Of a stretch of DNA of 35,338 nucleotides, positions 5,110-35,338 are shown piece after piece. Both the position numbers and the translations under genes were made by a program. A model generated the notes under the pieces. It was not told the DNA's origin, did not search any database, and saw only the letters and a list, made by a program, of their open reading frames with translations. Numbering within the stretch: position 1 is the stretch's first letter; each line of letters begins with the position of its first letter. The DNA is from Candidatus Buchananbacteria bacterium. GTDB lineage: Bacteria > Patescibacteriota > Patescibacteriia > 2-01-FULL-39-33. The stretch spans positions 1-35,338 of the forward strand of contig CAIVNC010000022.1 in assembly GCA_903907165.1 (NCBI GenBank), written 5' to 3'.

Positions 5110-7227
5110 TTAGTAGTTAGCTAGTTCTTCTTCGTTGACATTGTAGATTGGTTTTTTGCCATAGCTCTTGAGTTTGGCAATAGTTGGGATATATTGTTTT
5201 TGACCATTTACGATAACGTAAATTCTGCCAGTTTCAACGGAGCGAAGTAACGTGCCATCGGCGTAGACTTTTACTCCTAGTACCTGGCCTTTCAGTGCAA
5301 TACTGTAAGTCACTTTACCAGTGCTAATAACGGTTGTCTTGGCCAGTGATAAATTCATATCGTCAATTCGGCCACGAGTATCAGAATTAAGAATCGTTGA
5401 GTTATTGTTTAATTTTCTACTTTCGGTATTGCTAAGTATGCCGTCACAATTAGTATCGATGGTGGTAATGCAAAGACCATTGACTTTCTGCCATTCAATT
5501 ATGGCTTTGGTGGTTGCTAGATTAAGAACGCTTGTAGGTGTACTGGGCAAGGCTCTGGCATAAGTTCCAGTATTTTTATACTTCAGGAAGGTTTGTAGGC
5601 CGATGATATCGCTATCAGTTTGATTGTATTTAATATCATGGCCAAACCAGAGATCGGTAATCACTTGAGTAGTGGTAGCTACCGGCGCTGTGATTGTAGT
5701 GGTAAATGATTGGTCAATGCCGGTGGCCGTACCAGAAGCGTTAGTGGCAAAAGCTTGAAAATGATAAGTTGTGCCAGAAATTAAACTGCTAAGATTGGCA
5801 GTAAGGGCTATTGATGATGTTCCAGTGGTGCTAGCTGTAAATGTGTGACCGTAAGCAGTGCTGGTTCCGTAATAAAAACCAGTATTGGCGAAGTTGATCG
5901 GTAAGTTGCCAGTGTTAGTGATTAAACCGTTAAGCGTAGCCTTGGTTGTGGTTACGTTAGTTGCTACATTTGTGGTTACTGTTGGCTTGGAGGTGGTGGC
6001 TATTTGTTGGCCGCCAGAACCGCTACCGCCGCCACCACCGTTCGTAGTGGTTGATACAGCATTTTTATCCAAAGTGGCTGCCACTGCGCTAGACAAAGGA
6101 TATTTTTGAGCATCGGTCACACTGTTAGCGTTGTATTCCTGATCATTCATCCACATAATCCAGCCACCCAAACCATTAGATTTAATATAATTAATCTTGT
6201 CTGTTAATGATTGAGGATCATCGTAAGTTACAAATTTATCACCAGCCACAGTTGAAGAAGTGATACTTAAATAAGGTACGTCAGCAACAGAATCCCAATG
6301 CCAATTTGGATTGCTTGAATCTAGACTGCCATAAGTAGCTTTAATTTGAGCATAAGTTTGTTGATTTGAAGAACCGCTGCCAATAAGGAAACTTTGTCTT
6401 GGTCCAGTAACTCCGCTAGTGCAGGCAGATGTTTGGCAAACACCGGTCACGACATCGCCGTAGAAAGCCAAGCCTAAGTTTAATTTTGAAGCAGGAAGTC
6501 CACCGGCCAAATAATTCTGTCTGACTGATTCAAAGGATACGACGGCGCCAGTTCCTGTTAGTGTTCCGTTTAGAGCAGAGTTATGCCAAGTATAAGGATT
6601 CCAATTACCGAGTCCAGATTCATCGTAAGTCATAACATTAATCCTATCTAATTTGTTGTAGATAGCAATAGTTTTAGAGCTCCAGTAACGAGCATCGACT
6701 GGAGAAGTGGCTGCGTCAACAGTGAGAAGTTTTCCAGCGGCTAAGCTACCGCGTAGCTTAGTTATGAGATTAGTCATATCGGTTTGGACAGTGGCAGAAT
6801 TGTAATCGCATGATTCCCAGTCGATATCTACACCGTCATAACCGTAAGTGTTAACATTGCTAATAATACTATTCACAAACCCGGTTAAGTTGTTTTCGAT
6901 GGCTGTTTTAAAGTAGTTGGTAGAAGCGCCAGTTTGAACAGACAAAAGAACTTTAACGCCTTTGGCATGAGCCGCAGCAATTAAAGCTGGAGCTGAACCC
7001 GCCATATTATCTGTAGTAATGTCCAAATTACCAGCTGAAGTTGGTCGGGCAGCCACATGATTGATGTGAGTCATTGATGGCCAATAAATTTTACTTACTG
7101 GAATTGGATTGAATGGCGTGTAATTGCCAACACTCCATGTTTCGGCTAGCGAAGTTTTTGGCGCCAGTAAAAAGGCGCTGGCCATTAAAAAAGCGATCAT
7201 GGCCAAGATTGTAGATCTTTTAAGCAT
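5110..7227 (-). CDS. Secreted GH18 glycoside hydrolase with FN3-like and peptidoglycan-binding-like domains (paralogue 1)
   Basis: Signal peptide ending SLA-E; catalytic DGVDIDWE; VMTYD, YDDPQSL, GLGGWIMW; Gly linker; FN3-like (LISGTTYHFQAFATN); PGBD-like (DIIGLQTFL...TTKAIIEWQKVNGL). Confidence 0.85.
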   Translation of the reverse strand: MLKRSTILAMIAFLMASAFLLAPKTSLAETWSVGNYTPFNPIPVSKIYWPSMTHINHVAARPTSAGNLDITTDNMAGSAPALIAAAHAKGVKVLLSVQTGASTNYFKTAIENNLTGFVNSIISNVNTYGYDGVDIDWESCDYNSATVQTDMTNLITKLRGSLAAGKLLTVDAATSPVDARYWSSKTIAIYNKLDRINVMTYDESGLGNWNPYTWHNSALNGTLTGTGAVVSFESVRQNYLAGGLPASKLNLGLAFYGDVVTGVCQTSACTSGVTGPRQSFLIGSGSSNQQTYAQIKATYGSLDSSNPNWHWDSVADVPYLSITSSTVAGDKFVTYDDPQSLTDKINYIKSNGLGGWIMWMNDQEYNANSVTDAQKYPLSSAVAATLDKNAVSTTTNGGGGGSGSGGQQIATTSKPTVTTNVATNVTTTKATLNGLITNTGNLPINFANTGFYYGTSTAYGHTFTASTTGTSSIALTANLSSLISGTTYHFQAFATNASGTATGIDQSFTTTITAPVATTTQVITDLWFGHDIKYNQTDSDIIGLQTFLKYKNTGTYARALPSTPTSVLNLATTKAIIEWQKVNGLCITTIDTNCDGILSNTESRKLNNNSTILNSDTRGRIDDMNLSLAKTTVISTGKVTYSIALKGQVLGVKVYADGTLLRSVETGRIYVIVNGQKQYIPTIAKLKSYGKKPIYNVNEEELANY

Positions 7228-7411
7228 GGGAGAAAATTAATTAATTTTAAATTATCTTAATGAAATATTACTATCTGTAGGTTAATATAATCTCATTATA
7301 GCATGTCATTAATTATTTATTAAGTTTATTTCTATTGATTTTTAGCTCTAATTTACTAGATGGATTTTTTTGTCTAAATTGAAAAAGGAGGATGACCTAT
7401 TTTAGCCACTA

Positions 7412-7440
7412 TTGACAAAATTAATTAAATATGCTATCAT
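7412..7440 (+). promoter_or_regulatory. sigma70-type promoter
   Basis: TTGACA (7412-7417), 17 nt, TG-extended TATCAT (7435-7440). Confidence 0.65.
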
Positions 7441-7544
7441 AATATATTACTTAATAAAAAAGTAGTTGAAATCGAGCAAATTTATTAAATATTGGCTAAA
7501 ATAAGCCAAGATAACATATAAAACAAATTAAGTCAATTATTATT

Positions 7545-8450
7545 ATGAAAAAGATGAACAAAAACATCACAAAAGTCCTATTAGTAGCCATTGCTTTAAT
7601 CTCTTTGGTCTCCGCACCAACCGTTTCAGCTGCTACTTATAAAGATTTAAAGTGGGGAAATCAAATGTATAAGGTCGTTATCGCTGGTGGAGTTACTGCC
7701 GTAAATGGCAAAACTATTTCCGTCCTAGCAACTAACGGTTCTAATTACACTGTTGATATTACCAACGCTAAAATTACCGTTAAAAAGCAAAGCTTTATTT
7801 ATGGTAGTTTAATGGTTAATGATCAAGTTACGATCAATGGCCAATTGGGCAACAACAATAATATCACTGCTAAATATTTAGATATTACTGTTAAGGTTCC
7901 GACTTATTTAACTGTCGATGGCCAAATTGTTGGTTTGACTAACGATTCAATGACCGTCTTGGCTAACGATGGCACAAACTATAATGTGCTTAAGTCTAAC
8001 GCTTCTTTGACTATTAATGGTCAGGCTGCCGACCTTTCTAAACTGAATGGTGGCGATAAGCTTACAGTTAATGGCGTTTTGGTTGGCGTTAATAAGATTT
8101 CTGCTCAATCAATCAATATTAGTATTAGTTCAGCTTCAACTCAGATTTATGGTAGAGTAATCTCCACTGATCTTGATGGTAAAAACATCTCATTGAGATG
8201 GGACAACGGAGCTGTTTATACAGTTTATGTTGGCAACGCTCAAATTCTTCTTAGTGGCAAATTAGCTGGTTTATCAGATTTGAAATCTGGCAACCAAATT
8301 AATATTACCGGTCAGTGGCTTAATGGTAGTACCTTTTTAGCTAAGACTGTTACTGGTACTCTAAACACTTCATGTTCAAATAGCTATAACCAAGGATATA
8401 GAAACCATAGAACAAATAGCACTTCCACTAATTGTGGTTGTACTCGCTAA
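7545..8450 (+). CDS. Secreted protein with three DUF5666-like beta-rich repeats
   Basis: Signal peptide; three ~75-aa repeats GxV/I...V...GxxYxV...A.I...L..(G/N)(D/N)..TIxG...xAK; Cys-containing C-terminal tail. Confidence 0.6.
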   Translation: MKKMNKNITKVLLVAIALISLVSAPTVSAATYKDLKWGNQMYKVVIAGGVTAVNGKTISVLATNGSNYTVDITNAKITVKKQSFIYGSLMVNDQVTINGQLGNNNNITAKYLDITVKVPTYLTVDGQIVGLTNDSMTVLANDGTNYNVLKSNASLTINGQAADLSKLNGGDKLTVNGVLVGVNKISAQSINISISSASTQIYGRVISTDLDGKNISLRWDNGAVYTVYVGNAQILLSGKLAGLSDLKSGNQINITGQWLNGSTFLAKTVTGTLNTSCSNSYNQGYRNHRTNSTSTNCGCTR

Positions 8451-8476
8451 GTCGGATTAAACTGATTTAGTTTTTC

Positions 8477-8504
8477 AAAAGACAGGTCGTAAGGCCTGTT
8501 TTTT
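8477..8504 (+). terminator. Rho-independent terminator
   Basis: GACAGGTC-GTAA-GGCCTGTT stem followed by a T-run. Confidence 0.7.
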
Positions 8505-8561
8505 GTTTTGTCTTTTTCGTGCTAGAATTAAGGCTGAAATATTAGAAAATTAAAGTTTAAA

Positions 8562-10208
8562 ATGACACAAAAGGAAGCTTTGGAAATTTTGAAAATGGGC
8601 CACAATGTTTTTATAACTGGCGCGGCCGGAAGTGGTAAGACTTATTTGCTAAATGAATACGTTAAATATTTAAGATCTAACGGCGTCGGTCTGGGTATTA
8701 CGGCTTCAACGGGCATTGCTGCGACCCACATGGGAGGCGTAACTATTCACTCTTGGACCGGCATGGGAATTAAGGATAAAATCAGTGGTCACGATCTGAT
8801 GGAGCTGGCGGAAAAATCTTATCTGCGCAAAAGATTTGATGAGGCTAAGGTGTTGGTGATTGACGAAGTTTCGATGCTTCATCATTATCGTTTAGATTTA
8901 GTCGATCAAATCGCCAAGGCTATGAAGAGAAATCAAAAACCGTTTGGCGGGATGCAAGTCGTGCTTTGTGGTGATTTTTTTCAGTTACCACCAGTTAGCC
9001 GGTTCGGAGAGGATGCGGCTCTTTTTGCCTATCATTCGGAAATTTGGAAATCAATGGATTTGAAAATTTGTTATCTAGAAGAACAGCATCGTCAGAATGA
9101 TTCTGAATTTTCCAATGTTTTAAATGCTATTCGTGATAATAAAGTTGGTGATAAGGTTTTGAAAACTTTAAAGTCTAGATTTAATTCCAAGCCGACAAAA
9201 ATAGAGCCAACGAAATTATATTCTCATAATAATGATGTTGATTTTGAAAATGAAAAGGAATTGTTAAAGTTGAAAGGCGAGTTATTTGTTTATGATATGA
9301 CCGGAGCGGGCAAAAGAGGTCTGGTAGAAACTTTGGAGAAAAGTTGCTTGGCGCCAAAAATTTTGAGAATAAAAAAAGGCGCGCGAGTGATGTTTGTCAA
9401 AAATAATTTTGAAGAAGGTTATGTTAATGGCACGCTTGGCGTGGTTGAGCATTGCGATGAGAGAAACATCAAAGTAAAGATTGCCTCTGGCCGGATTATT
9501 GAGGTTAAGCCGGCGGTTTGGGTGATTGAAGAAAATGATTCTATTAAGGCGCAGATAACTCAATATCCGTTACGTCTAGCTTGGGCAATTACGGTTCACA
9601 AAAGTCAGGGCATGTCACTTGATGCGGCGGAAATAGATTTATCGCGTTCCTTTGAACGAGGCATGGGTTATGTTGCTTTGTCGCGCGTTAGAAGTTTGTC
9701 CGGTCTTTCGCTTTTGGGTTTTAATGAAATGGCCTTGCGAGTTAGTGATGAGGTTAGGGATTTTGATCAGTTGTTTAGGGAAGAATCTCATCATCACTGC
9801 GCGAATTTGAGAAAGCAAAATCACAAAGAAGTTGAACAGCTTAAGAATGATTTTTTAATTTCAGTCGGTGCTGGCAAAAAAGAGCCAAAAAAGAAAAAAG
9901 GTGATACCTATTTGGAAACAAAAAAATTACTCGATGAAGGTTTTTCCATTTTTGATATTGTGGAAACTCGTGATCTGACCATGGGAACAATTATTAGTCA
10001 CTTGGAAAAACTAAGAGAGAGAAAGCAAGAAGTTGATTGGTCATTTATTTTTAGAATTGTTGCCTCTGATCGTCTAGAAAAAATTAAAAAAGCCTTGCTT
10101 TCTGGTGGCAAAGAAGAAGGAAAATATCGCTTGGTTCCCGCGATGTCAATTTTGGGCAGCGAGTTTTCTTTTGAGGAAGTGAGGCTGGTGAGATTATTAT
10201 TGGATTAA
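8562..10208 (+). CDS. PIF1-family (SF1B) DNA helicase with C-terminal helix-turn-helix
   Basis: GAAGSGKT, DEVSM, GDFFQLPPV, QYPLRLAWAITVHKSQGMSLD, YVALSR; C-terminal TYLETKKLL...TIISHL HTH-like segment. Confidence 0.9.
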   Translation: MTQKEALEILKMGHNVFITGAAGSGKTYLLNEYVKYLRSNGVGLGITASTGIAATHMGGVTIHSWTGMGIKDKISGHDLMELAEKSYLRKRFDEAKVLVIDEVSMLHHYRLDLVDQIAKAMKRNQKPFGGMQVVLCGDFFQLPPVSRFGEDAALFAYHSEIWKSMDLKICYLEEQHRQNDSEFSNVLNAIRDNKVGDKVLKTLKSRFNSKPTKIEPTKLYSHNNDVDFENEKELLKLKGELFVYDMTGAGKRGLVETLEKSCLAPKILRIKKGARVMFVKNNFEEGYVNGTLGVVEHCDERNIKVKIASGRIIEVKPAVWVIEENDSIKAQITQYPLRLAWAITVHKSQGMSLDAAEIDLSRSFERGMGYVALSRVRSLSGLSLLGFNEMALRVSDEVRDFDQLFREESHHHCANLRKQNHKEVEQLKNDFLISVGAGKKEPKKKKGDTYLETKKLLDEGFSIFDIVETRDLTMGTIISHLEKLRERKQEVDWSFIFRIVASDRLEKIKKALLSGGKEEGKYRLVPAMSILGSEFSFEEVRLVRLLLD

Positions 10209-10254: not shown

Positions 10255-12501
10255 TTATTGAGTGGTTAAGGTATAAGTTGTTTTGCCGTTACTTGTTGTC
10301 GGAATTAAAATTTTCTTTAAACCATTGATTTTTGTCCTAGTTGGAGTGTCGAGGTAGTAGGTGACCGTTAAACCATTTAGTTTTTGGTATTCAGTTATAG
10401 CTTTTCTAGTGGCGGCACCGAAATATGTTGTTGGCGTGTACTTGCTTAGGGCGGTTGCTGCTGAATTACCCTTGTCTTGATTAACTAAGAAAATCTGTAA
10501 AGTTTTGACATCGCTGCTTCTTTGCCCGTATTTTAGATTGCTACTAAATTGTACTGAGATATTATCGTCGTTATCGGTTGGTGGCTGATTCTGCTCGGTG
10601 GCCGTGGTAAAACTTTTATCACTTCCAATAGCTGTGCCTAAAGTATTACTAGCATAAGTTTGGTAGTGGTAAGTTGTTCCTGGAATTAAATTATGTACCA
10701 CGTAATTAAAAGCAATGGTCGTGGTAACGGCTGGTCTTTTTTGATCTATGATTCCATAGGCAGTGCTGGTGCCGAGGTAGAAACCGCTATCGGTAATGTC
10801 TAGATTGCCAGTATCAATAATTATACCATTGAGGGAAGCGCTGCTTGTACTAATATTGTCAGCATTAAATGTTTCCACTGTTGGTTCGGAAGTGTTGATA
10901 TCCAAGGGAGAAGTGGTAAAGGTCTGGTCGGTGCCATAGGCTGTTCCGGAATTATTGGAAGCATAAGCCTGATAATGGTAGGTGGTGTTAGGAAGTAAAC
11001 CAGATAGACTAGAACTAAATGTTCCAATGCCAGTAATGGTTGGGCTCTGGGGTAAATTATTGCCGTAAGAGATGGTAGTGCCATAATTAAAACCACTACG
11101 AGTAATTGTAAGATTACCATCGCTGGTTATTGCACCGTTCAAAACAACATTATTTTGGCTTATGTTGTTAGCTAGGTTAGTAATTACGGTTGGAGCAGAA
11201 GTTGGCATAGTACAAGACTGTGAAATTATTGGGTTTCCACCGGTACAGCCAGTAGGAAGCGACGTAACAACCGTTCTAGTTTGTAAACTATTTACACAGG
11301 TTGACCAGCTAGTAGAATAGGTAAACGATGTACAAGTAGTAGTTTTGCCTAGGGCTAAAGCTACGGCATTGCCGAGAGGATATTTTTGAGCATCGGTTAC
11401 GCCACTGGCATTATATTCCTGGTCGTTCATCCACATAATCCAGCCACCCAGATTATTAGACTTAATATAATTCATCTTGTCAGTCAAAGATTGAGCATCA
11501 TCATAAGTAATAAATTGGTCATTACTTGCTCCAGAATTATCAATGCTTAAATAAGGCACATCAGCCGTTGCATCCCAATGCCAATTGGGATTACTAGAAT
11601 CTAGATTGCCATAGGTAGCTTTAATCTGAGCGTAAGTTTTTTGAACTGCAGGGCCACTTCCAGCGTAGAAACTTTGTTTTGGCGCTGTTACACCGTTGGT
11701 ACAAGCTGATGTTTGACAGACGCCAGTCATAGCATCGCCGTAAAAAGCTAAACCAAAATTTAATTTACCGCTATTGCCAGTAAGGCCACCGGCTAAATAA
11801 TTAGCTTTAACTGAGTCAAATGAGACAACTCCATTATATCCATGTAGAGCAGAATTATGCCAAACATAAGGATTCCAACTTCCAAGTCCTGCCTCGTCGT
11901 AAGTCATGACACTAATCCTATCTAATTTGTTGTAGATACCAATTGTGCTAGAAGTCCAATAACGAGCATCGACAGGGGAGGTGGCCACATCAACCGTCAG
12001 CAACTTGCCAGAGCCAAGGCTATTGCGCAGACTAGTCAAAAGATTAGTCATGTCATTTTGAATAGTTGTAGAACTAAAGTCTTGAGCTTCCCAGTCAATA
12101 TCGACACCATCGTAGCCGTAAGTATTGACGTTGCTAATAATACTGCTAACGAATCCATTAAGGTTCTTCTCAATAGCTGTTTTAAAGTAATTGGTCGATG
12201 CCCCAGTCTCTACAGAGAGAAGTACTTTAACATTATTAGCATGAGCCGCAGTGATTAAAGCCGGAGCCGTACCAGCTAGATTATTGGTAGTAATGTTAAG
12301 AGTGCCATCTGAATTCGGTCTGGCAGCCACATGATTCATGTGGGTGACAGAATTCCAGTCTATATTAGAAACAGCAACTGGATTATATGGCGTATAATTG
12401 CCAACACTCCAGGTATCGGCTAGCGATATTTTTGGCGCTAGTAGAAACACACCGGCCATTAAAAAAACGATCATGGCCAAGATCGTGGATCTTTTGGGCA
12501 T
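10255..12501 (-). CDS. Secreted GH18 glycoside hydrolase with TSP1-like, two FN3-like and peptidoglycan-binding-like domains (paralogue 2)
   Basis: Signal peptide; DGVDIDWE; GH18 domain highly similar to 5110-7227; LKYGQRSSDVKTLQIFL...YFGAATRKAITEYQKLNGL resembles PG_binding_1. Confidence 0.85.
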   Translation of the reverse strand: MPKRSTILAMIVFLMAGVFLLAPKISLADTWSVGNYTPYNPVAVSNIDWNSVTHMNHVAARPNSDGTLNITTNNLAGTAPALITAAHANNVKVLLSVETGASTNYFKTAIEKNLNGFVSSIISNVNTYGYDGVDIDWEAQDFSSTTIQNDMTNLLTSLRNSLGSGKLLTVDVATSPVDARYWTSSTIGIYNKLDRISVMTYDEAGLGSWNPYVWHNSALHGYNGVVSFDSVKANYLAGGLTGNSGKLNFGLAFYGDAMTGVCQTSACTNGVTAPKQSFYAGSGPAVQKTYAQIKATYGNLDSSNPNWHWDATADVPYLSIDNSGASNDQFITYDDAQSLTDKMNYIKSNNLGGWIMWMNDQEYNASGVTDAQKYPLGNAVALALGKTTTCTSFTYSTSWSTCVNSLQTRTVVTSLPTGCTGGNPIISQSCTMPTSAPTVITNLANNISQNNVVLNGAITSDGNLTITRSGFNYGTTISYGNNLPQSPTITGIGTFSSSLSGLLPNTTYHYQAYASNNSGTAYGTDQTFTTSPLDINTSEPTVETFNADNISTSSASLNGIIIDTGNLDITDSGFYLGTSTAYGIIDQKRPAVTTTIAFNYVVHNLIPGTTYHYQTYASNTLGTAIGSDKSFTTATEQNQPPTDNDDNISVQFSSNLKYGQRSSDVKTLQIFLVNQDKGNSAATALSKYTPTTYFGAATRKAITEYQKLNGLTVTYYLDTPTRTKINGLKKILIPTTSNGKTTYTLTTQ

Positions 12502-29656: not shown

Positions 29657-29727
29657 CGGGTTGTGGTATAACGGCATTATACGCGATTCGGGTTCGCGTG
29701 ACGGCGGTTCAATTCCGCCCAGCCCGA
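29657..29727 (+). tRNA. tRNA-Pro(CGG)
   Basis: CGGGTTG / CAGCCCG acceptor with discriminator A; anticodon arm CGCGA-TTCGGGT-TCGCG; GGTTCAATTCC. Confidence 0.9.
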
Positions 29728-29763: not shown

Positions 29764-31137
29764 ATGCCTAGTAACCAGAGAGATTATCAATTTATTGAAA
29801 GTACTATAAGTCTTTGTTCTGTTTGTCTAAAGAGAATAGACGCAAAAATTGTTTCGAAGGATAATAAAGTTTTTATTTTGAAATATTGTCCAGAGCATGG
29901 TGATCAAGAGTGTATCTTGGAGGATGATTCTGCGTATTATGCAAAAAGAATGTTGTACACAAAGCCTGGTTCAGTTTCAAAAATACAAACAACTAGAAAG
30001 GATAATTGCCCATTTGATTGTGGTCTTTGTCCTGAGCACGAACAACATTCCTGCATAGGACTTATTGAAGTAACAAATGATTGTGATTTAAAATGTCCAG
30101 TTTGTTATGCAAATAGTGGGTCTGGAGGTCATTTGCCATTGCCAAAAATAAATGAGATGCTGGATTTTTTTGTTGATTCTGAATTTGGAAGTGCTGAAAT
30201 TTTACAGATTAGTGGAGGCGAGCCAACCACACACCCAGAAATAATTGAAATTATAAAACTCGCAAGAGAAAAGAAGATAAAATATGTAATGCTAAACACC
30301 AATGGATTACGTATTGCTGAGGATGAAGAGTTTGTTGAGAAGCTTGCCCAATTTAAAGGTAATTTTGAGATTTATCTTCAATTTGATGGATTTGATGAAA
30401 AAGTTTATCGACACTTAAGAGGAAGGGATTTATTGGAAATAAAATTAAAGGCAATAGAAAATCTAACTAAATATAAAATACCTATAACTCTGGTTTCTAC
30501 AGTAGAGAAAGGTATTAATGATCAAGAAATTGGAAAAATAGTTGAATTCGGAATAAATAAAAAATATATCAGAGGTATAAATTTTCAACCAGTTTCTTTT
30601 TTTGGAAGACTGGTAGATGTTAATAGAAAAGACAGAACGACTATAACAGGTATTATTGATAGTATAGAAAAGCAAACAAATGGAATGATCAAAAAGAATG
30701 ATTTTATTCCTTTGCCTTGTAATGTCGATAGGGTTGCCATAACATATTTATATCGAGTGAATGATGAGTTTATTCCGTTAACTAGAGATCTTGATGCTAA
30801 GAATTATTTATCTTCAATTAGAAATACCTTTAAATTTGATCCGGAGGATTTTTTAAGTGATTTAACAAAAAATATTTTTTCTTCAGTTAGTGGTTGTTGT
30901 AATTATTTGTCTTTTTTTGGAAAGCTAAAAAAAATAGTTCCAGCTAGCTATTTGTTAAAATCAGAGGAGGATAAGATAGAATACGTGAGTGAAAATACTT
31001 TTAGAATAAGCATAACTTCGTTTGTTGATGCTTATAATTTTGATATGAAATCAATGAAAAAAGAGTGTGTTCATATAATTACCCCAGATTTAAAGAAAAT
31101 TCCTTTTTCCGCTTATAATATAATACACAGGAAATAA
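29764..31137 (+). CDS. Radical SAM enzyme, Tes/MJ0619 (tetraether synthase)-like family
   Basis: N-terminal CSVC...CPEHG, CPFDCGLCPEH, core CDLKCPVC, SGGEPT, NTNG, YLQFDG, NFQP, C-terminal CVH...IPFSAYN. Confidence 0.8.
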   Translation: MPSNQRDYQFIESTISLCSVCLKRIDAKIVSKDNKVFILKYCPEHGDQECILEDDSAYYAKRMLYTKPGSVSKIQTTRKDNCPFDCGLCPEHEQHSCIGLIEVTNDCDLKCPVCYANSGSGGHLPLPKINEMLDFFVDSEFGSAEILQISGGEPTTHPEIIEIIKLAREKKIKYVMLNTNGLRIAEDEEFVEKLAQFKGNFEIYLQFDGFDEKVYRHLRGRDLLEIKLKAIENLTKYKIPITLVSTVEKGINDQEIGKIVEFGINKKYIRGINFQPVSFFGRLVDVNRKDRTTITGIIDSIEKQTNGMIKKNDFIPLPCNVDRVAITYLYRVNDEFIPLTRDLDAKNYLSSIRNTFKFDPEDFLSDLTKNIFSSVSGCCNYLSFFGKLKKIVPASYLLKSEEDKIEYVSENTFRISITSFVDAYNFDMKSMKKECVHIITPDLKKIPFSAYNIIHRK

Positions 31138-31140
31138 ATT

Positions 31141-31779
31141 ATGCTATTTAATTTTGATCTTAGTGCTCTATTTAGTGATCCAAATAAAATATTTTCCGTT
31201 GTTGTTAATTTTGTTGTTTTTTTGTCAGTATTCTCAGTTGTAGTTGCAGTGCTAATTGATTTTATTGAATTTCATCAGAGAAAACAAACAAAGAAAGAAA
31301 AAAATAGTATTGTAGAGACTGGAACAATGTTTTTTTTCTTTTTCTTTTTTTACTTTTTTATTAGGTTTAGTGTAGGCATTGTTAATGTGGATTTTTTACC
31401 AATGAGATTGTTTTTATTGTTTCTGGGTTTGTTTATGGTTGTTATCGGTTGTTTGGTTAATGTAGCAGGTAGATTTAATTTGGGTAAAAATTGGTCAAAT
31501 CAGATAAAAATTTATAACGATCATCATTTTATCTCATCTGGAATGTATGGACTAGTTAGACATCCTTTGTATGCTTCTATAATATGGATGTTTTTTGGAG
31601 CGAGTTTGGTTTACTCTAATTGGGTTGCTTTTTTGTCTAATATATTTATTTTTATTCCTTTTATGTATTACAGGGCTAGACAAGAAGAGGCATTACTTGA
31701 GACAGAATTCGCCGGGTATAAAGAGTATAAAAGAAAAGTGGGAATGTTTTTACCTAATTTATTTAATAAAAAACAATGA
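31141..31779 (+). CDS. Isoprenylcysteine carboxyl methyltransferase (ICMT/Ste14/PEMT)-family membrane methyltransferase
   Basis: Multi-TM; LGKNWS, GMYGLVRHPLY, EEALL..EF..YKEYKRKV...LP. Confidence 0.85.
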   Translation: MLFNFDLSALFSDPNKIFSVVVNFVVFLSVFSVVVAVLIDFIEFHQRKQTKKEKNSIVETGTMFFFFFFFYFFIRFSVGIVNVDFLPMRLFLLFLGLFMVVIGCLVNVAGRFNLGKNWSNQIKIYNDHHFISSGMYGLVRHPLYASIIWMFFGASLVYSNWVAFLSNIFIFIPFMYYRARQEEALLETEFAGYKEYKRKVGMFLPNLFNKKQ

Positions 31780-32219
31780 AAAAATATAAACCAGTAGTTA
31801 TTCCTAGTGCTGCCTTTGCTTTTTGCAGATATAGTATGGCTATTTTAATATGGCTGTCTTTATTTTTACATTCAAAGTATCTTCTTGTTTTCGTTTTGAT
31901 TATTTTCTTATTGTCGGCAATATTTAAGATAAAAAAGTCCCCAATGATTTTACTCTATAGCTATACTGTGAATAAGATTATTAAATCAAAAGATGAAATT
32001 TTAAATGAGCATGCTATGAGATTTGCTCATCTTGCTGGTAGTTTTTTTAGTTTGATATGCTTATTGCTTTTATTCTTTGTTAATGAAAAGGCGGGATGGA
32101 TTGCTGTTTTTATATTTGCTCTCCTTAAAACTGTTTCCGTTTTTGGTTTTTGCCCAGCTTCAAAATTGTACGAATGTGCTACAAATGATAGTTGCTGTGC
32201 TTTTATTAAAAAATCATGA
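31776..32219 (+). CDS. DUF4395-like membrane protein
   Basis: Four TM segments; MRFAH..G, GW, GFCPASKLY; Cys-rich C-terminus. Confidence 0.6.
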   Translation: MKKYKPVVIPSAAFAFCRYSMAILIWLSLFLHSKYLLVFVLIIFLLSAIFKIKKSPMILLYSYTVNKIIKSKDEILNEHAMRFAHLAGSFFSLICLLLLFFVNEKAGWIAVFIFALLKTVSVFGFCPASKLYECATNDSCCAFIKKS

Positions 32220-32998
32220 TAGACGATCATTTTTATCCAGAAAATTGGGGCGTAAGGCCTATTTTGTTTAAAATAGGGAATTTTGATATTCAATCATATC
32301 CATTTTTTGTGTTGTTGGGTTTAATCGTCGGATTGTCAGTTTACTTTTATGAATCGAGACGAAAGAAGAATATAAATGAAAATGGCTTCATGATAGTTAT
32401 CGGTTCTTTGATCGGTGGAACAATTGGTTCAAAATTTTTACAGTGGGCGATTGACTATAGATATATAATTTCTCATTTTTACAATTGGAGATTTTTTATC
32501 TCCGGTCGGACAATCGTTGGTGGAATGATTGGAGGAGTTATTGGTGTCCTGGTGACAAAAAAAATTCTTGGCACAAAAGAAAAAAGAGGAAATTTATTTG
32601 CCCCGGCAGTGGCGATCGGCGTTGCCATTGGTAGGTTGGGTTGTTTTTTTAGAGGTTGTTGTTACGGAAAGGCCACCGCCTTGCCATGGGGAGTAGATTT
32701 TGGTGATCATGTTCTAAGACATCCAACTCAACTTTATGAATCATTATTCATGCTAGGAATGTTCGTTTATTTGGAAAAAATAAAGAATAATTCAGATATT
32801 AAGGATGGCCAACTATTTAAGATATTAATGCTTTCTTACTTTATTTTTAGATTTTTTATAGAGTTTATTAGAGAAGAAGGAGTAGTTTTTATTGGCTTAA
32901 CCGTATTTCAAATAATTTCAATTGGTGCTATAATTTATCTAATTAAAGATAATATAATAAATTTAATCTTAAAAATTAAATCATATGCTAAAAGATGA
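32216..32998 (+). CDS. Prolipoprotein diacylglyceryl transferase (Lgt)-family paralogue
   Basis: PILFKIG, SYPFF, GRTIVGG, AIGRLGCFFRGCCYG, LPWG, RHPTQLYE, RFFIEFIR. Confidence 0.85.
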   Translation: MIDDHFYPENWGVRPILFKIGNFDIQSYPFFVLLGLIVGLSVYFYESRRKKNINENGFMIVIGSLIGGTIGSKFLQWAIDYRYIISHFYNWRFFISGRTIVGGMIGGVIGVLVTKKILGTKEKRGNLFAPAVAIGVAIGRLGCFFRGCCYGKATALPWGVDFGDHVLRHPTQLYESLFMLGMFVYLEKIKNNSDIKDGQLFKILMLSYFIFRFFIEFIREEGVVFIGLTVFQIISIGAIIYLIKDNIINLILKIKSYAKR

Positions 32999-33335
32999 AA
33001 AACAGGGAAAAATAATAAGTATGAACTATGAGTCCAGGACTGATTATTACACAACACCTGGAAAGAAAGTAGGAGATTTTCTTATGGGATTTTTTGGTTT
33101 TTTGGCGTTATCTTTTGTTGGTTCAATTTTGGGTTCTATTATTTCTTCTTTTGGCTCAAATGGGTTTATTAGTTCTATTTTTGGTATTTTTCTCTTGTTT
33201 GTCGCACTGGGTCTATGTATTTTCTTCTTTAAGATAAAAAGAAGATTTATTGCCATTGGAATTATTTCTATTACTCTGATTCCAGTTCTACTTTTTGGTA
33301 GTTGTCTTTTATTGCTTTCTCCTTGGAATCGTTAA
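32985..33335 (+). CDS. Small three-TM membrane protein with lipobox-like C-terminal segment
   Basis: Hydrophobic ORF overlapping the Lgt-like gene by 14 nt; ends KIKRRFIAIGIISITLIPVLLFGSCLLLLSPWNR. Confidence 0.7.
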   Translation: MLKDEKQGKIISMNYESRTDYYTTPGKKVGDFLMGFFGFLALSFVGSILGSIISSFGSNGFISSIFGIFLLFVALGLCIFFFKIKRRFIAIGIISITLIPVLLFGSCLLLLSPWNR

Positions 33336-33347
33336 TTTGCTAAAAAC

Positions 33348-33379
33348 AAAAAATCCTCGGTTAATTCCGAGGATTTTTT
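33348..33379. terminator. Bidirectional terminator
   Basis: AAAAAATCCTCGG-TTAATT-CCGAGGATTTTTT between convergent operons. Confidence 0.85.
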
Positions 33380-34104
33380 TATCCGACAATAACTTTATCA
33401 AAATATTTTTCTAAAATCTTTTTCGCTTCTTCAACTTGCTCAGTGGTTGGCGGTTCTAGGTGGGCTAACTTATAATCCATGCCCATATGTTCGTATTTGT
33501 GCTTGCCGAGCGTGTGGTAGGGCAGTAGTTCAAGTCGTTCAACATTTTTAAACTCTTTGAAATACTCGCCAATCGACTCCAGATGTGCTGCTGAGTCGGT
33601 CAGGCTCGGTACGAGAACATGTCTGATCCACATCGGCTTGTTTATTTCCTTGAGATAATTGGCTAACGCCAAAGTATTCTCATTGCCGGCGCCAGTCAAT
33701 TTTTTATGCTCCTCATTATTAATCTGTTTGATATCCAAAATTACCAAATCGGTATAATTGAGCAGTTCTTTGACCTGGTCATTAAAAATACAGCCGTTGG
33801 TGTCGAGAGCAGTATGGATGTCGTCATTTTTTAATAGTTTGAATAAATCGATCAAGGCCTCGGCTTGGACCAACGGTTCGCCGCCAGAAACGGTCACGCC
33901 GCCATTGTTTTTGAAATATGGCTTTTGATCGACAGCCATGCGAACTATTTTGAGCTTGCTGATTTCTTTGCCGTGATCCATGGCTTGGGTGTCAGGATTG
34001 TGGCAATACAAACAGCGCCAAGGACAGCCTTGCAAAAAGACCACCAGACGGATGCCGGGGCCTTCATGAGTGCCAAAAGTTTCAATCGAGTGGACATTAA
34101 GCAT
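33379..34104 (-). CDS. pflA: Pyruvate formate-lyase activating enzyme
   Basis: HSIETFGTHEGPGIR, GCPWRCLYCHNPDT, GGVTVSGGEP, LDTNG, LLPYH. Confidence 0.95.
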   Translation of the reverse strand: MLNVHSIETFGTHEGPGIRLVVFLQGCPWRCLYCHNPDTQAMDHGKEISKLKIVRMAVDQKPYFKNNGGVTVSGGEPLVQAEALIDLFKLLKNDDIHTALDTNGCIFNDQVKELLNYTDLVILDIKQINNEEHKKLTGAGNENTLALANYLKEINKPMWIRHVLVPSLTDSAAHLESIGEYFKEFKNVERLELLPYHTLGKHKYEHMGMDYKLAHLEPPTTEQVEEAKKILEKYFDKVIVG

Positions 34105-34924
34105 CTTGAGTCGCGCTTTGTTTGTGGGAGTAAATAAACCAGTAGGCGAGCCAGATCAGCACGCCGCCGATGATGTTGCCGATCGTAACTGGCAAAAGAT
34201 TGTGGACGAAGAAATTGCCCCAAGTGAGCACGCCAGCGTCAATCGCTTTTGAGGCGACAAAGCCCGGGTCGAAGGTTTTGATAAGCAATGCTTCGGTGAC
34301 GAGATACATGTTGGCGACAGAGTGCTCAAAGCCCATGGCCACGAAAGCGGAGACTGGGAAAACGATAGCTAAGATTTTGTCAGTGGTGGACTTGCCGTTG
34401 AATGACAGCCAGATAGCCAGGCAGACCATGAGGTTACACAAGATGCCGAGGACGATAGCTTCGATAAAACCATGATGCATTTTGGGCAAGGCGATAGAGA
34501 AAACGGCTTGGCCAAAAGCGCCACCGGAAACAGCGTATTCTTTGGCGAGGAAAAGTAAAAAGGCGATGAACATGGCGCCGACAAAGTTGCCGACATAAAC
34601 CATGGCCCAGTTTTTGATTAGACCCCAGATTTTGATTTTGCGGTTGAGCCAAGCGACAGAAACAAGCGTTGAGCCGGTAAAAAGCTCTGCTCCGCCGATG
34701 ACGCAGAGAATGAGGCCAAGACTGAAAACGATGCCCATGATGAGGCGCATAATGCCAAATGGCACTATTCCGGTAGCACCGGTAGCAATCACCGTAGCGA
34801 AGATGCCACCCATGGCCACGTAAGCTCCGCCCAGGATGGACAGAGTGAATAAATTCTTTGGCGAGTGGCTAGCCTTTTTGATGGCGTAGACCTCAGCCTG
34901 AGCGTTCATTTCTGATGGTGTCAT
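34097..34924 (-). CDS. focA: Formate/nitrite transporter
   Basis: GAELFTG, GNFVG, GILCNLMVCLA, FVAMGFEHSVANM, NLLPVTIGNIIGG; lies between pflB and pflA. Confidence 0.92.
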   Translation of the reverse strand: MTPSEMNAQAEVYAIKKASHSPKNLFTLSILGGAYVAMGGIFATVIATGATGIVPFGIMRLIMGIVFSLGLILCVIGGAELFTGSTLVSVAWLNRKIKIWGLIKNWAMVYVGNFVGAMFIAFLLFLAKEYAVSGGAFGQAVFSIALPKMHHGFIEAIVLGILCNLMVCLAIWLSFNGKSTTDKILAIVFPVSAFVAMGFEHSVANMYLVTEALLIKTFDPGFVASKAIDAGVLTWGNFFVHNLLPVTIGNIIGGVLIWLAYWFIYSHKQSATQDA

Positions 34925-34933
34925 AAATTTGGA

Positions 34934-35338
34934 TTATAAGCTTTGGTGGAAAGTTCTGGCCAAGACTTCTTGTTGCTGGTCTCTGGTCAGTTTGATGAAA
35001 TTAACGGCATAACCGGAAACACGAATAGTGAGTTGAGGGTAGTTTTCTGGATGTTCCATGGCGTCCATTAATGTTTCACGGTTCAGAACATTGACGTTGA
35101 GGTGATGAGCGCCTTTTTGGAAATAACCATCAAGAAGGGCAGTTAAATTCTGTCTTTTTTCTTCTTCGGTTTTGCCTAGAGTCTGTGGAACAATGGAAAA
35201 AGTATTGGAAATACCGTCGCGAGCAAATTCGTAATCTAGTTTAGCAACAGAATTCAAAGAGGCGATAGCGCCATGAGTATCGCGGCCGTGCATTGGGTTG
35301 GCGCCAGGAGCAAAAGGTTCGCCAGCTTTGCGGCCATC
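34934..35338 (-). CDS. pflB: Pyruvate formate-lyase, C-terminal part (partial)
   Basis: [20 protein letters not shown]...[15 protein letters not shown] glycyl-radical motif. Confidence 0.95.

Follow-up and report, generated by a model that had tools for sequence, protein, structure and literature searches.

A recurrent five-gene membrane cassette that couples a second Lgt to a Tes-like radical SAM enzyme and a small cysteine protein: a candidate lipid-modification module

Why should a small bacterial genome carry a second gene of the Lgt family, and why should that gene stand in a tight row with a radical S-adenosylmethionine (SAM) enzyme, a methyltransferase and two membrane proteins? The question is raised by the stretch of DNA considered here (the window: 35,338 nucleotides (nt) of contig CAIVNC010000022.1, assembly GCA_903907165.1, Candidatus Buchananbacteria), in which positions 29764-33335 of the + strand hold five closely coupled open reading frames (ORFs), below called the cassette. 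They encode, in order, a radical SAM enzyme (rSAM) of the Tes/GDGT-MAS superfamily, a methyltransferase of the ICMT family, a DUF4395 protein, a paralogue of Lgt and a small membrane protein with an invariant Cys. The original prediction, made from the letters of the window, took these for a dedicated pathway to a ‘cross-linked and/or methylated lipid or lipidated peptide’. The five genes are one copy of a conserved membrane module, probably scattered by horizontal transfer. The module is real and conserved and appears to be undescribed; it brings known enzyme families together in a new way, and includes a protein that could plausibly be its dedicated substrate. No paper joining the DUF4395, rSAM, ICMT and Lgt families was found in the searchable literature, a scope that stops short of supplementary tables.

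The first part of the answer is that the cassette recurs. In a scan of one genome per species, 35 loci carry an rSAM 54-78% identical to that of the window (their gene content was read by tblastn with the window's five proteins); they come from the candidate phyla radiation (CPR), from metagenome-assembled genomes (MAGs) of Nanoarchaeota and Woesearchaeota (DPANN archaea), and from Omnitrophica, Clostridia, Bacilli, Ignavibacteriales and Desulfobulbaceae. The order rSAM-ICMT-DUF4395-Lgt paralogue is kept in every locus whose contig is long enough: where the contig reaches, ICMT is found in 33/33, DUF4395 in 32/32 and the Lgt paralogue in 31/31, and the four shortfalls (L006, L010, L016 and L027) are contig ends. 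Since the four enzyme genes recur in one order wherever the contig allows, the arrangement is not due to chance. An all-against-all BLAST of 311 flanking ORFs from the 35 loci found no other recurrent gene beside the small protein and scattered ABC ATPases; the cassette is therefore self-contained. As a negative control, 13 loci with rSAM paralogues of 32-36% identity, from a Clostridia-class sample (the class of genome G005), were scanned for ICMT, DUF4395 or LGT genes within 1.5 kb; 0/13 had one.

The cassette is also rare. An even sample of 401 genomes from its own phylum holds an orthologue in the source genome (G000) only, with a 41% identical variant in one more genome; in the Clostridia-class sample an rSAM orthologue occurs in 4 of the 399 scored genomes, and the genomes new in that sample (G507, G545 and G571) prove on whole-genome search to have all five genes. 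Wide scatter, rarity and low GC (given below) together suggest horizontal transfer of the cassette. Two loci show oddities of detail. In L036, from a member of the Patescibacteria, the rSAM matches in three overlapping tblastn pieces in different frames (8001-9348), which points to frameshifts or to errors in the assembly, its remaining four genes being apparently intact. In L023 (Syntrophomonadaceae) a gene for a 205-residue membrane protein lies between the Lgt paralogue and the small Cys protein (11343-12447), the sole such insertion among 31 loci.

More distant relatives help to locate the core of the system. The rSAMs of seven diverged cassettes (G077, G840, G916, G832, G1040, G970 and G956) are 36-62% identical; the Lgt paralogue, the rSAM and the small Cys protein are kept in all of them, gene order varies, and ICMT or DUF4395 come and go. 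Three of these (G077, G840 and G916) run Lgt paralogue-rSAM-small Cys protein without ICMT or DUF4395, their rSAMs being 40% identical to the window's and 60-62% among themselves. G970 has no DUF4395 and carries the small gene between ICMT and the Lgt paralogue; in G956 the small gene comes first. The remaining two are more elaborate (L092, G832:C7:38000-49000; L093, G1040:C7:338000-349500), with an acyltransferase-like protein, an AMP-binding enzyme, the Lgt paralogue, the small protein (motif MGAC or VGSC), an ICMT-like protein and the rSAM; in L092 the acyltransferase encoded upstream, together with the AMP-binding enzyme, is of the hexapeptide type. A further small protein (FGGC) is encoded ahead of the rSAM in G832, and the whole-genome match of that rSAM is flagged ‘1 TGA inside’. 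Downstream of the rSAM in both lie genes for ArsP_1 permease, Se_S_carrier, Carb_kinase-like and Sulf_transp (YeeE/YedE-type) proteins, which links this rSAM subfamily to sulfur or selenium trafficking. In a 301-genome sample of the phylum of the Omnitrophica genome G004, 7/7 rSAM matches are linked to an Lgt gene.

Gene fusions divide the cassette at the same place. LGT, Zn ribbon and Radical_SAM domains are joined in one chain in 12 protein clusters (663-723 residues), and ICMT and DUF4395 in seven (342-357 residues); domain order was confirmed on three of each. From the variants and the fusions it follows that three members, the Lgt paralogue, the rSAM and the small Cys protein, form the core, with ICMT and DUF4395 as a sub-module. 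Recurrence elsewhere, and a core of rSAM, Lgt and small transmembrane gene found with or without ICMT and DUF4395, were both expected in the original prediction, and both are borne out; so are its four family assignments (Tes-like rSAM, ICMT, DUF4395, Lgt paralogue), all above the Pfam gathering cut-offs.

If the module has a private substrate, the small protein is the obvious place to look. A homologue of 93-140 residues is encoded directly after the Lgt paralogue in 30/31 loci. Tandem genes occur, three in L008 (11197-12274) and two in L011 (11174-12028), each with its own G-x-C motif, and the variant cassette of G077 has two or three copies; by analogy, such multiplication recalls the precursor genes of modified peptides. 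Pfam and NCBIfam give no significant family. The mean column identity of 34 sequences is 20%, and their only invariant column is C107 of the window's protein, the equivalent of which is the sole Cys in 20/34. It lies in a lipobox-like motif near the C-terminus, hydrophobic-G-[A/G/S]-C: Gly at -2 (G105) in 33/34, Ala, Gly or Ser at -1 in 30/34, and a hydrophobic run from -6 to -3. Counting back from the Cys, the nearest Lys or Arg stands 15-27 residues away (mode 20), and the tail beyond the Cys consists of 4-15 mostly hydrophobic residues (9 in the window's protein). An AlphaFold2 model (pLDDT 83.5) has helices at 25-55, 60-83 and 87-115, with the motif in the third. By the positive-inside rule, the N-terminus and the KIKRR loop would be cytoplasmic and helix 3 would run outward like a lipoprotein signal peptide, leaving the Cys at its outer end. 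An invariant Cys with a small neighbour at -1, at the end of a hydrophobic stretch that basic residues precede, is what a lipoprotein precursor presents. Judged by these features, the small protein is most likely the private substrate. A complex prediction for the Lgt paralogue with the small protein scored 0.06 against a mark of 0.32, a result that counts neither for nor against binding.

Is the paralogue still an Lgt? It scores 132.3 bits on Pfam LGT (PF01790, residues 15-241; gathering score 24.9) and 97.3 bits on TIGR00544, below the 118.9-bit equivalog cut-off for housekeeping Lgt. A separate housekeeping lgt, which the original prediction advised seeking, is present on another contig of the source genome (G000:C32) and scores 226.3 bits on Pfam LGT as against 132.3. 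The five bacterial genomes examined each hold a single housekeeping Lgt (226-279 bits) in addition to a single copy of the cassette type (113-134 bits); the Woesearchaeota MAG G003 has no LGT gene other than the cassette copy. Aligned to E. coli Lgt (5azb), the paralogue keeps Tyr in HWY, Arg and the final Gly in the GRLG...G signature, and Tyr, Arg and Glu in YxxFRxxxE. Y26, R143, G154, Y235, R239 and E243, which we take to be essential in the E. coli enzyme, align to Y28, R140, G151, Y208, R212 and E216 of the paralogue; among 30 paralogue sequences the first five are invariant and E216 is nearly so. The E. coli residues N146, E151 and H103 are replaced by C143, C148 and V101, and a Cys-rich motif, GR[LIV]GC[FL]xxGCC[YF]G, is present in 32/32 paralogues.

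The Cys-rich motif was considered as a mark of new chemistry and ruled out, as the GCFLNGCCYG form is also found in the housekeeping Lgt of G004. That high-scoring protein, encoded ~190 nt from lspA (L057, G004:C71:28634-32338), carries the signature GRIGCFLNGCCYG (GCxxxGCC form; GCFLNGCCYG) and its HGG motif has Tyr where the His would stand. Because it has the same GCxxxGCC form, the Cys replacements are no argument against Lgt activity, and the cassette paralogues may descend from a G004-like type of Lgt. By its conserved residues the paralogue looks competent and dedicated. LspA (Peptidase_A8) was not found in G000 (86% complete) or G003 and is present in G001, G002 and G004; LspA-dependent release of a short lipopeptide is not favoured, the missing Peptidase_A8 in G000 and G003 being weak evidence in incomplete genomes.

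LGT-family genes also appear, as cassette members, in two DPANN MAG loci: L014 (Nanoarchaeota) and L017, the locus of G003 (Woesearchaeota), on a contig of 168 kb. No archaeal Lgt homologues had been identified so far, according to PMC12462473; if the MAG binning is right, L014 and L017 contradict that statement.

The rSAM is the enzyme for which chemistry might be borrowed from a known relative. It matches Pfam Radical_SAM (86.7 bits) and Zn_ribbon_HMPTM (61.2 bits) above the gathering cut-offs, its best PDB match is 7tol, GDGT-MAS (E 1.3e-81), and on sequence it is a clear member of the Tes superfamily. GDGT-MAS is the product of mj0619, identified as the tetraether lipid synthase in PMC9433317, the authors of which could not corroborate an older HMPTM assignment of mj0619; the ‘HMPTM’ in the Pfam name is therefore a relic of that assignment. 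With the motif definitions of the same paper, the rSAM has the rubredoxin-type CX2CX20CX2H (C18, C21, C42, H45), the N-terminal auxiliary cluster CX3CX2C plus His (C82, C86, C89, H92/H95) and the radical SAM CX3CX2C (C107, C111, C114). In its C-terminal region C319, M428, M431, C435 and H437 are near-invariant, and ‘IPFS’ is read in 33/33 scorable cassette rSAMs (3/36 are cut), as against ‘IPFC’ in 6/6 scorable Tes and 11/11 scorable TrsS sequences.

Membership in the superfamily did not turn out to mean membership in Tes. The best-scoring named model is TrsS (NF045646), at 373.9 bits with a cut-off of 490; five further cassette rSAMs score 321.6-370.3 bits on it. The Tes model (NF045702) gives 337.9 bits with a cut-off of 450, the best stretch covering model positions 2-313 of 486. 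Two trees were built (FastTree, local supports). The first took in 108 sequences that represent a whole-library search, along with 12 members of the family and one true TrsS, its clades being labelled by scanning 20 representatives (P0180 and P0230, the Tes-clade rows scanned, are above the Tes cut-off): one half contains both the Tes clade (11 rows, support 100) and that of TrsS (36 rows, support 99), and the cassette family lies in the other as a clade of support 98 without Tes or TrsS. In the second, the 12 fusions, 12 family members and 5/7 of the variants form one 50-row set (support 96), again with no Tes or TrsS; the two sulfur-linked variants are just outside it, in the same half. By sequence, then, the cassette rSAMs make up a subfamily of their own, linked to Lgt and separate from both Tes and TrsS. 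One genome, G002, even holds a true TrsS (620.6 bits; L048, G002:C44:1-16000, at 6431-7786 on the - strand) in addition to a cassette rSAM. The neighbours of this TrsS are unrelated: by their translations we take them to be an XdhC-like protein, a nucleotidyltransferase/HD protein, a C_GCAxxG_C_C-like small protein and a split adenylate-forming enzyme. The original prediction named an rSAM outside the Tes clade as a ground for its own refutation, and outside that clade the rSAM falls (338 against 450 bits, and a tree half without Tes or TrsS), so that the ‘cross-linked lipid’ of its proposal is an analogy, not a finding. The lipidated peptide or protein of the same proposal fares better, given the invariant Cys and lipobox-like motif.

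The sub-module is less easily read. The ICMT protein scores 50.6 bits on Pfam ICMT (PF04140; gathering score 24), and its residues 46-206 align to residues 29-192 of Ma-ICMT (PDB 4a2n, E 7e-13), including the C-terminal cofactor-binding region; RHPLYAS and YRA+QEE blocks are conserved among the orthologues. On NF040696 (protein-S-isoprenylcysteine O-methyltransferase) it reaches 79.9 of the 160 bits of the equivalog cut-off; the family therefore does not fix the substrate. The DUF4395 protein scores 59.2 bits on PF14340 (gathering score 24.5). F16, C17, W26, P56, H85, G124, C126, K130, C134 and C140 are invariant in 32 sequences, with C141 in at least 90%. The AlphaFold2 model (pLDDT 85.9) is a four-helix bundle, for which Foldseek has no PDB match at E <= 0.001 and a wide VIA-align search finds generic helical bundles (Z <= 8.7, within the helical background). 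The C-terminus of ICMT is cytoplasmic; the charge distribution (positive-inside rule) and the fusion behind ICMT would place the DUF4395 cysteines on the cytoplasmic face also, where they could bind metal or carry sulfur. A direct, CaaX-like methylation of the small protein's C-terminus by the ICMT protein is thought unlikely: on the topology so deduced, the Cys of the small protein would be outside and the ICMT site inside.

One perspective draws these observations together, and on balance it is probably the right one: the Lgt paralogue lipidates the Cys of the small protein, after which rSAM and methyltransferase module work on the attached lipid. The analysis shows the gene set with its order and conservation, the fusions, the motifs, the catalytic and cluster-binding residues that are kept, and the separation from Tes, TrsS and housekeeping Lgt; chemistry, lipid donor and order of steps are what we infer. 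The third helix of the small protein would serve as an internal lipoprotein signal peptide (basic loop, ~20 hydrophobic residues, hydrophobic-G-[A/G/S]-C). The Lgt paralogue would attach a glycerolipid (diacylglyceryl, with phosphatidylglycerol as donor, if the analogy holds) to Cys107 on the outward side of the membrane. On the cytoplasmic side, where in some organisms it is fused to the C-terminus of the Lgt paralogue, the rSAM would act on the hydrocarbon part of the bound lipid and form either a C-C bond, like Tes, or, in a variant of that chemistry, a C-S bond; finally, the ICMT-family enzyme with DUF4395 would add a methyl group at the cytoplasmic face.

Several observations weigh against this account. 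The active site of Lgt faces outward, and the SAM-dependent chemistry of rSAM and ICMT must be cytoplasmic; no single atom can therefore be reached by all three enzymes. The rSAM, no orthologue of Tes, also differs from it in the C-terminal cluster region (IPFS for IPFC); the sulfur/selenium-carrier genes of the variant cassettes hint at chemistry other than C-C bond formation. L017 has no adjacent small gene, and the only homologue in its genome (G003) is unlinked (E 1.6e-6) and without G-x-C. The motif is loose in two variant cassettes (GLTC in L085, LLLCATC in L086) and reads QGC in L082. Nor is it a canonical lipobox: it does not follow an N-terminal signal peptide, and its -2 residue is Gly, not [A/S/T/V/I]. 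With the canonical form given as [L/V/I][A/S/T/V/I][G/A/S]C in PMC12462473, both the -2 Gly and the frequent -3 Phe fall outside. The link of Cys107 to a lipid is itself a prediction from sequence.

A second perspective leaves the protein out of the product. The Lgt-like protein would bind a glycerophospholipid and present it to the rSAM, and the product would be a free modified lipid (tail-coupled, macrocyclic, methylated or similar); the small protein would then be a structural or regulatory subunit, its Cys functional and unlipidated, a role that we hold to be rather unlikely, as we do the scheme to which it belongs. The Lgt+rSAM fusions suit lipid presentation as well as they suit a lipoprotein role, Tes/GDGT-MAS acts on free membrane lipids (PMC9433317), and scavenging and remodelling of host lipids is ascribed to CPR and DPANN organisms (PMC11868695). 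What such a scheme leaves unexplained is that the sole invariant residue of a divergent protein should be a Cys, in a small-residue context and at a fixed distance from a basic loop; it also leaves unexplained the tandem small-gene copies and the residues for transfer to a thiol that the Lgt paralogue has kept.

A third perspective bears on the later steps and leaves room for lipidation of the small protein by the Lgt paralogue. The rSAM would form a C-S bond on lipid or protein, DUF4395 would act as a membrane sulfur relay by way of its cytoplasmic Cys cluster, and the ICMT-family enzyme would S-methylate the new thiol, as a split methylthiolation. Leads in this direction are several: the ArsP_1, Se_S_carrier and Sulf_transp genes after the rSAM in G832 and G1040; the path of GDGT-MAS catalysis via a bond between substrate carbon and cluster sulfur (PMC9433317); the weak match of DUF4395 to a YgaP-like transmembrane domain (E 0.0077) along with its four to five invariant Cys; a weak match of the ICMT protein to MddA, methanethiol S-methyltransferase (1.1e-5); and the nearest named rSAM family, TrsS, which is a (seleno)protein family. 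However, the matches are all weak or indirect, the sulfur-gene neighbours are confined to two loci, Se_S_carrier and Sulf_transp are Pfam annotation names, and the window's own cassette has no sulfur-transport gene; sulfur chemistry of this kind is unlikely, even as the later half of a lipidation pathway.

Lipidation followed by modification of the lipid can also be spelled out to the end. In its fullest form a private Lgt would thioether-lipidate the small protein at an internal lipobox close to its C-terminus, the docked rSAM would join the tails across the bilayer midplane to a second chain, or thiolate them, and ICMT-DUF4395 would methyl-cap the cytoplasmic end. The product would be a protein-anchored membrane-spanning or methylthio lipid, horizontally shared among anaerobic bacteria and DPANN archaea; so detailed a picture is quite doubtful, and the product with it.

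Very improbable is an ordinary bacterial Tes homologue that makes bulk membrane-spanning lipids, like branched glycerol dialkyl glycerol tetraethers (brGDGTs), among loosely related neighbours: the E-value of 1e-81 to GDGT-MAS and the proposal of bacterial Tes homologues as brGDGT synthases (PMC8941075) speak for it, and against it stand the score below the Tes equivalog cut-off, the position outside the Tes clade, the tight linkage (in some organisms fusion) to an Lgt paralogue, and a distribution so rare and patchy (in its own phylum G000 alone of 401 genomes; 4/399 in the Clostridia-class sample) as is not expected of a core membrane-lipid enzyme.

The layout of the locus itself fits a single unit, as the original prediction had it; ORFs, GC content and ARAGORN agree with its five-gene operon, its junctions and its AT-rich run from tRNA-Pro to a terminator, the last being represented by a terminator-like hairpin. 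The features are collected in Table 1. At the first junction TAA, 3 nt and ATG follow each other at 31135-31143; ICMT and DUF4395 overlap by ATGA at 31776-31779, as do DUF4395 and the Lgt paralogue at 32216-32219, and the last two genes overlap by 14 nt (32985-32998). In 1-kb windows GC is 0.27-0.32 across 30001-33500, as against 0.39-0.43 just upstream and 0.47-0.50 downstream. The hairpin, with a 13-pair stem including 5 GC pairs, lies between the last cassette gene and a convergent gene; the scan is a consensus pattern match, and since 1.7 such sites are expected by chance in the region, the hairpin alone is weak evidence.

Table 1. Features of the cassette and its boundaries (positions in the window)
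Feature	Position	Strand	Length	Family or method
Radical SAM enzyme (rSAM), Tes/GDGT-MAS superfamily, Lgt-linked subfamily	29764-31137	+	457 aa	
ICMT/PEMT-family integral-membrane SAM methyltransferase	31141-31779	+	212 aa	Pfam ICMT
DUF4395 four-helix membrane protein	31776-32219	+	147 aa	Pfam DUF4395
Lgt paralogue, second LGT-family gene of the genome	32216-32998	+	260 aa	Pfam LGT
Small three-helix membrane protein, proposed dedicated substrate	32985-33335	+	116 aa	no family
Codons for F104-G105-S106-C107, lipobox-like motif with invariant Cys	33294-33305	+		
tRNA-Pro(cgg), upstream boundary of cassette	29657-29727	+		ARAGORN
Palindromic hairpin with A and T runs on its flanks, possible two-way terminator	33348-33379	.		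pattern scan

The source genome comprises 755 kb in 57 contigs, and the closest protein relatives bear the labels of Falkowbacteria and other CPR lineages, in keeping with a CPR organism. The end of the tRNA-Pro(cgg) gene is 36 nt upstream of the cassette, and L004, the closest relative locus, also has tRNA-Pro(cgg) just upstream. Adjacency to a tRNA gene was considered as a mark of integration and rejected: it holds for the window and L004 (a tRNA-Ala lies near L031), and does not recur in the other loci. Beyond the hairpin, three convergent genes on the - strand (33379-35338) have a GC content of 0.47-0.50, well above the remaining window. Presumably, from the resemblance of their translations, they encode the activase of pyruvate formate-lyase (PFL), a formate/nitrite transporter and the C-terminal part of a glycyl-radical enzyme (RVSGYAV). 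In a genome of 755 kb, such a PFL set for fermentation, foreign in its composition, may have been acquired as a further block.

What would follow if the account of a lipidated small protein holds? Lgt-type lipidation would not be confined to the housekeeping pathway: it would have been recruited, with a Tes-like rSAM, into a dedicated system with its own substrate. LGT-family genes would have a place in archaeal MAGs, against the statement in PMC12462473. Among the hosts of the cassette are CPR bacteria with reduced genomes and DPANN archaea, organisms held to be unable to make lipids of their own. There is also a bearing on surveys that count ‘bacterial Tes homologues’ found at loose thresholds as potential brGDGT producers: Zeng et al. 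(PMC8941075), with MA_1486 as query, proposed 456 of them as brGDGT candidates, at E < 1e-50 and identity > 20%. By E-value, the Lgt-linked rSAM subfamily is probably caught by loose Tes searches of this kind, and it is unlikely to be a bulk tetraether synthase. Tes and Mss matches have been reported in many phyla, including Patescibacteria, Omnitrophota and Woesearchaeia; linkage to Lgt goes unmentioned in the available text of that report (PMC11868695). With two fusion architectures and a single invariant Cys to work on, the hypothesis is directly testable.

How does the module compare with systems already known? Like the Lgt-LspA-Lnt pathway, it has an LGT enzyme with the key residues, and a Cys behind small residues, a basic stretch and a hydrophobic helix. 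Unlike that pathway, it employs a second, dedicated Lgt, which seems to serve a single protein encoded alongside it; the Cys motif belongs to the third helix, with Gly fixed at -2 and 4-15 residues left before the C-terminus; and the classical pathway has no rSAM or ICMT partners. Eukaryotic CaaX processing, which consists of lipidation of a Cys, cleavage of the tail and methylation by ICMT, also brings together a near-C-terminal Cys, a thiol-acting lipid transferase and an ICMT-family methyltransferase in one system. The cassette, however, has no prenyltransferase or CaaX protease gene, the tail is 4-15 residues rather than 3, and Cys and ICMT site would lie on opposite faces of the membrane.

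Among radical SAM systems, Tes/GDGT-MAS (MJ0619; PDB 7tol, 7tom) shares with the cassette rSAM the superfamily and the rubredoxin-type, N-terminal cluster and radical SAM motifs. It differs in that the cassette enzyme is ~70 residues shorter, with a C-terminal domain of weak similarity (40 bits) and Ser for the Cys of IPFC, and is linked or fused to an Lgt paralogue; the Tes-clade rows of the tree are known here without their gene contexts. TrsS, reportedly named by Haft and Tolstoy in 2025, belongs to the same superfamily and gives the top named model, yet the cassette rSAM is below its cut-off and in a separate clade, and the true TrsS of G002 keeps other company. Mss, the membrane-spanning lipid synthase of Thermotoga and Thermoanaerobacter, is likewise a radical SAM enzyme that joins lipid tails in anaerobes; it is described as only remotely related to Tes (PMC13159169), and homologues are reported in candidate phyla and DPANN (PMC13159169; PMC11868695). 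Finally, AliA and AliB, the archaeal lipoprotein lipidation enzymes, offer a parallel in that they lipidate a lipobox Cys in archaea; the cassette differs from them in bringing LGT-family genes into the DPANN loci L014 and L017.

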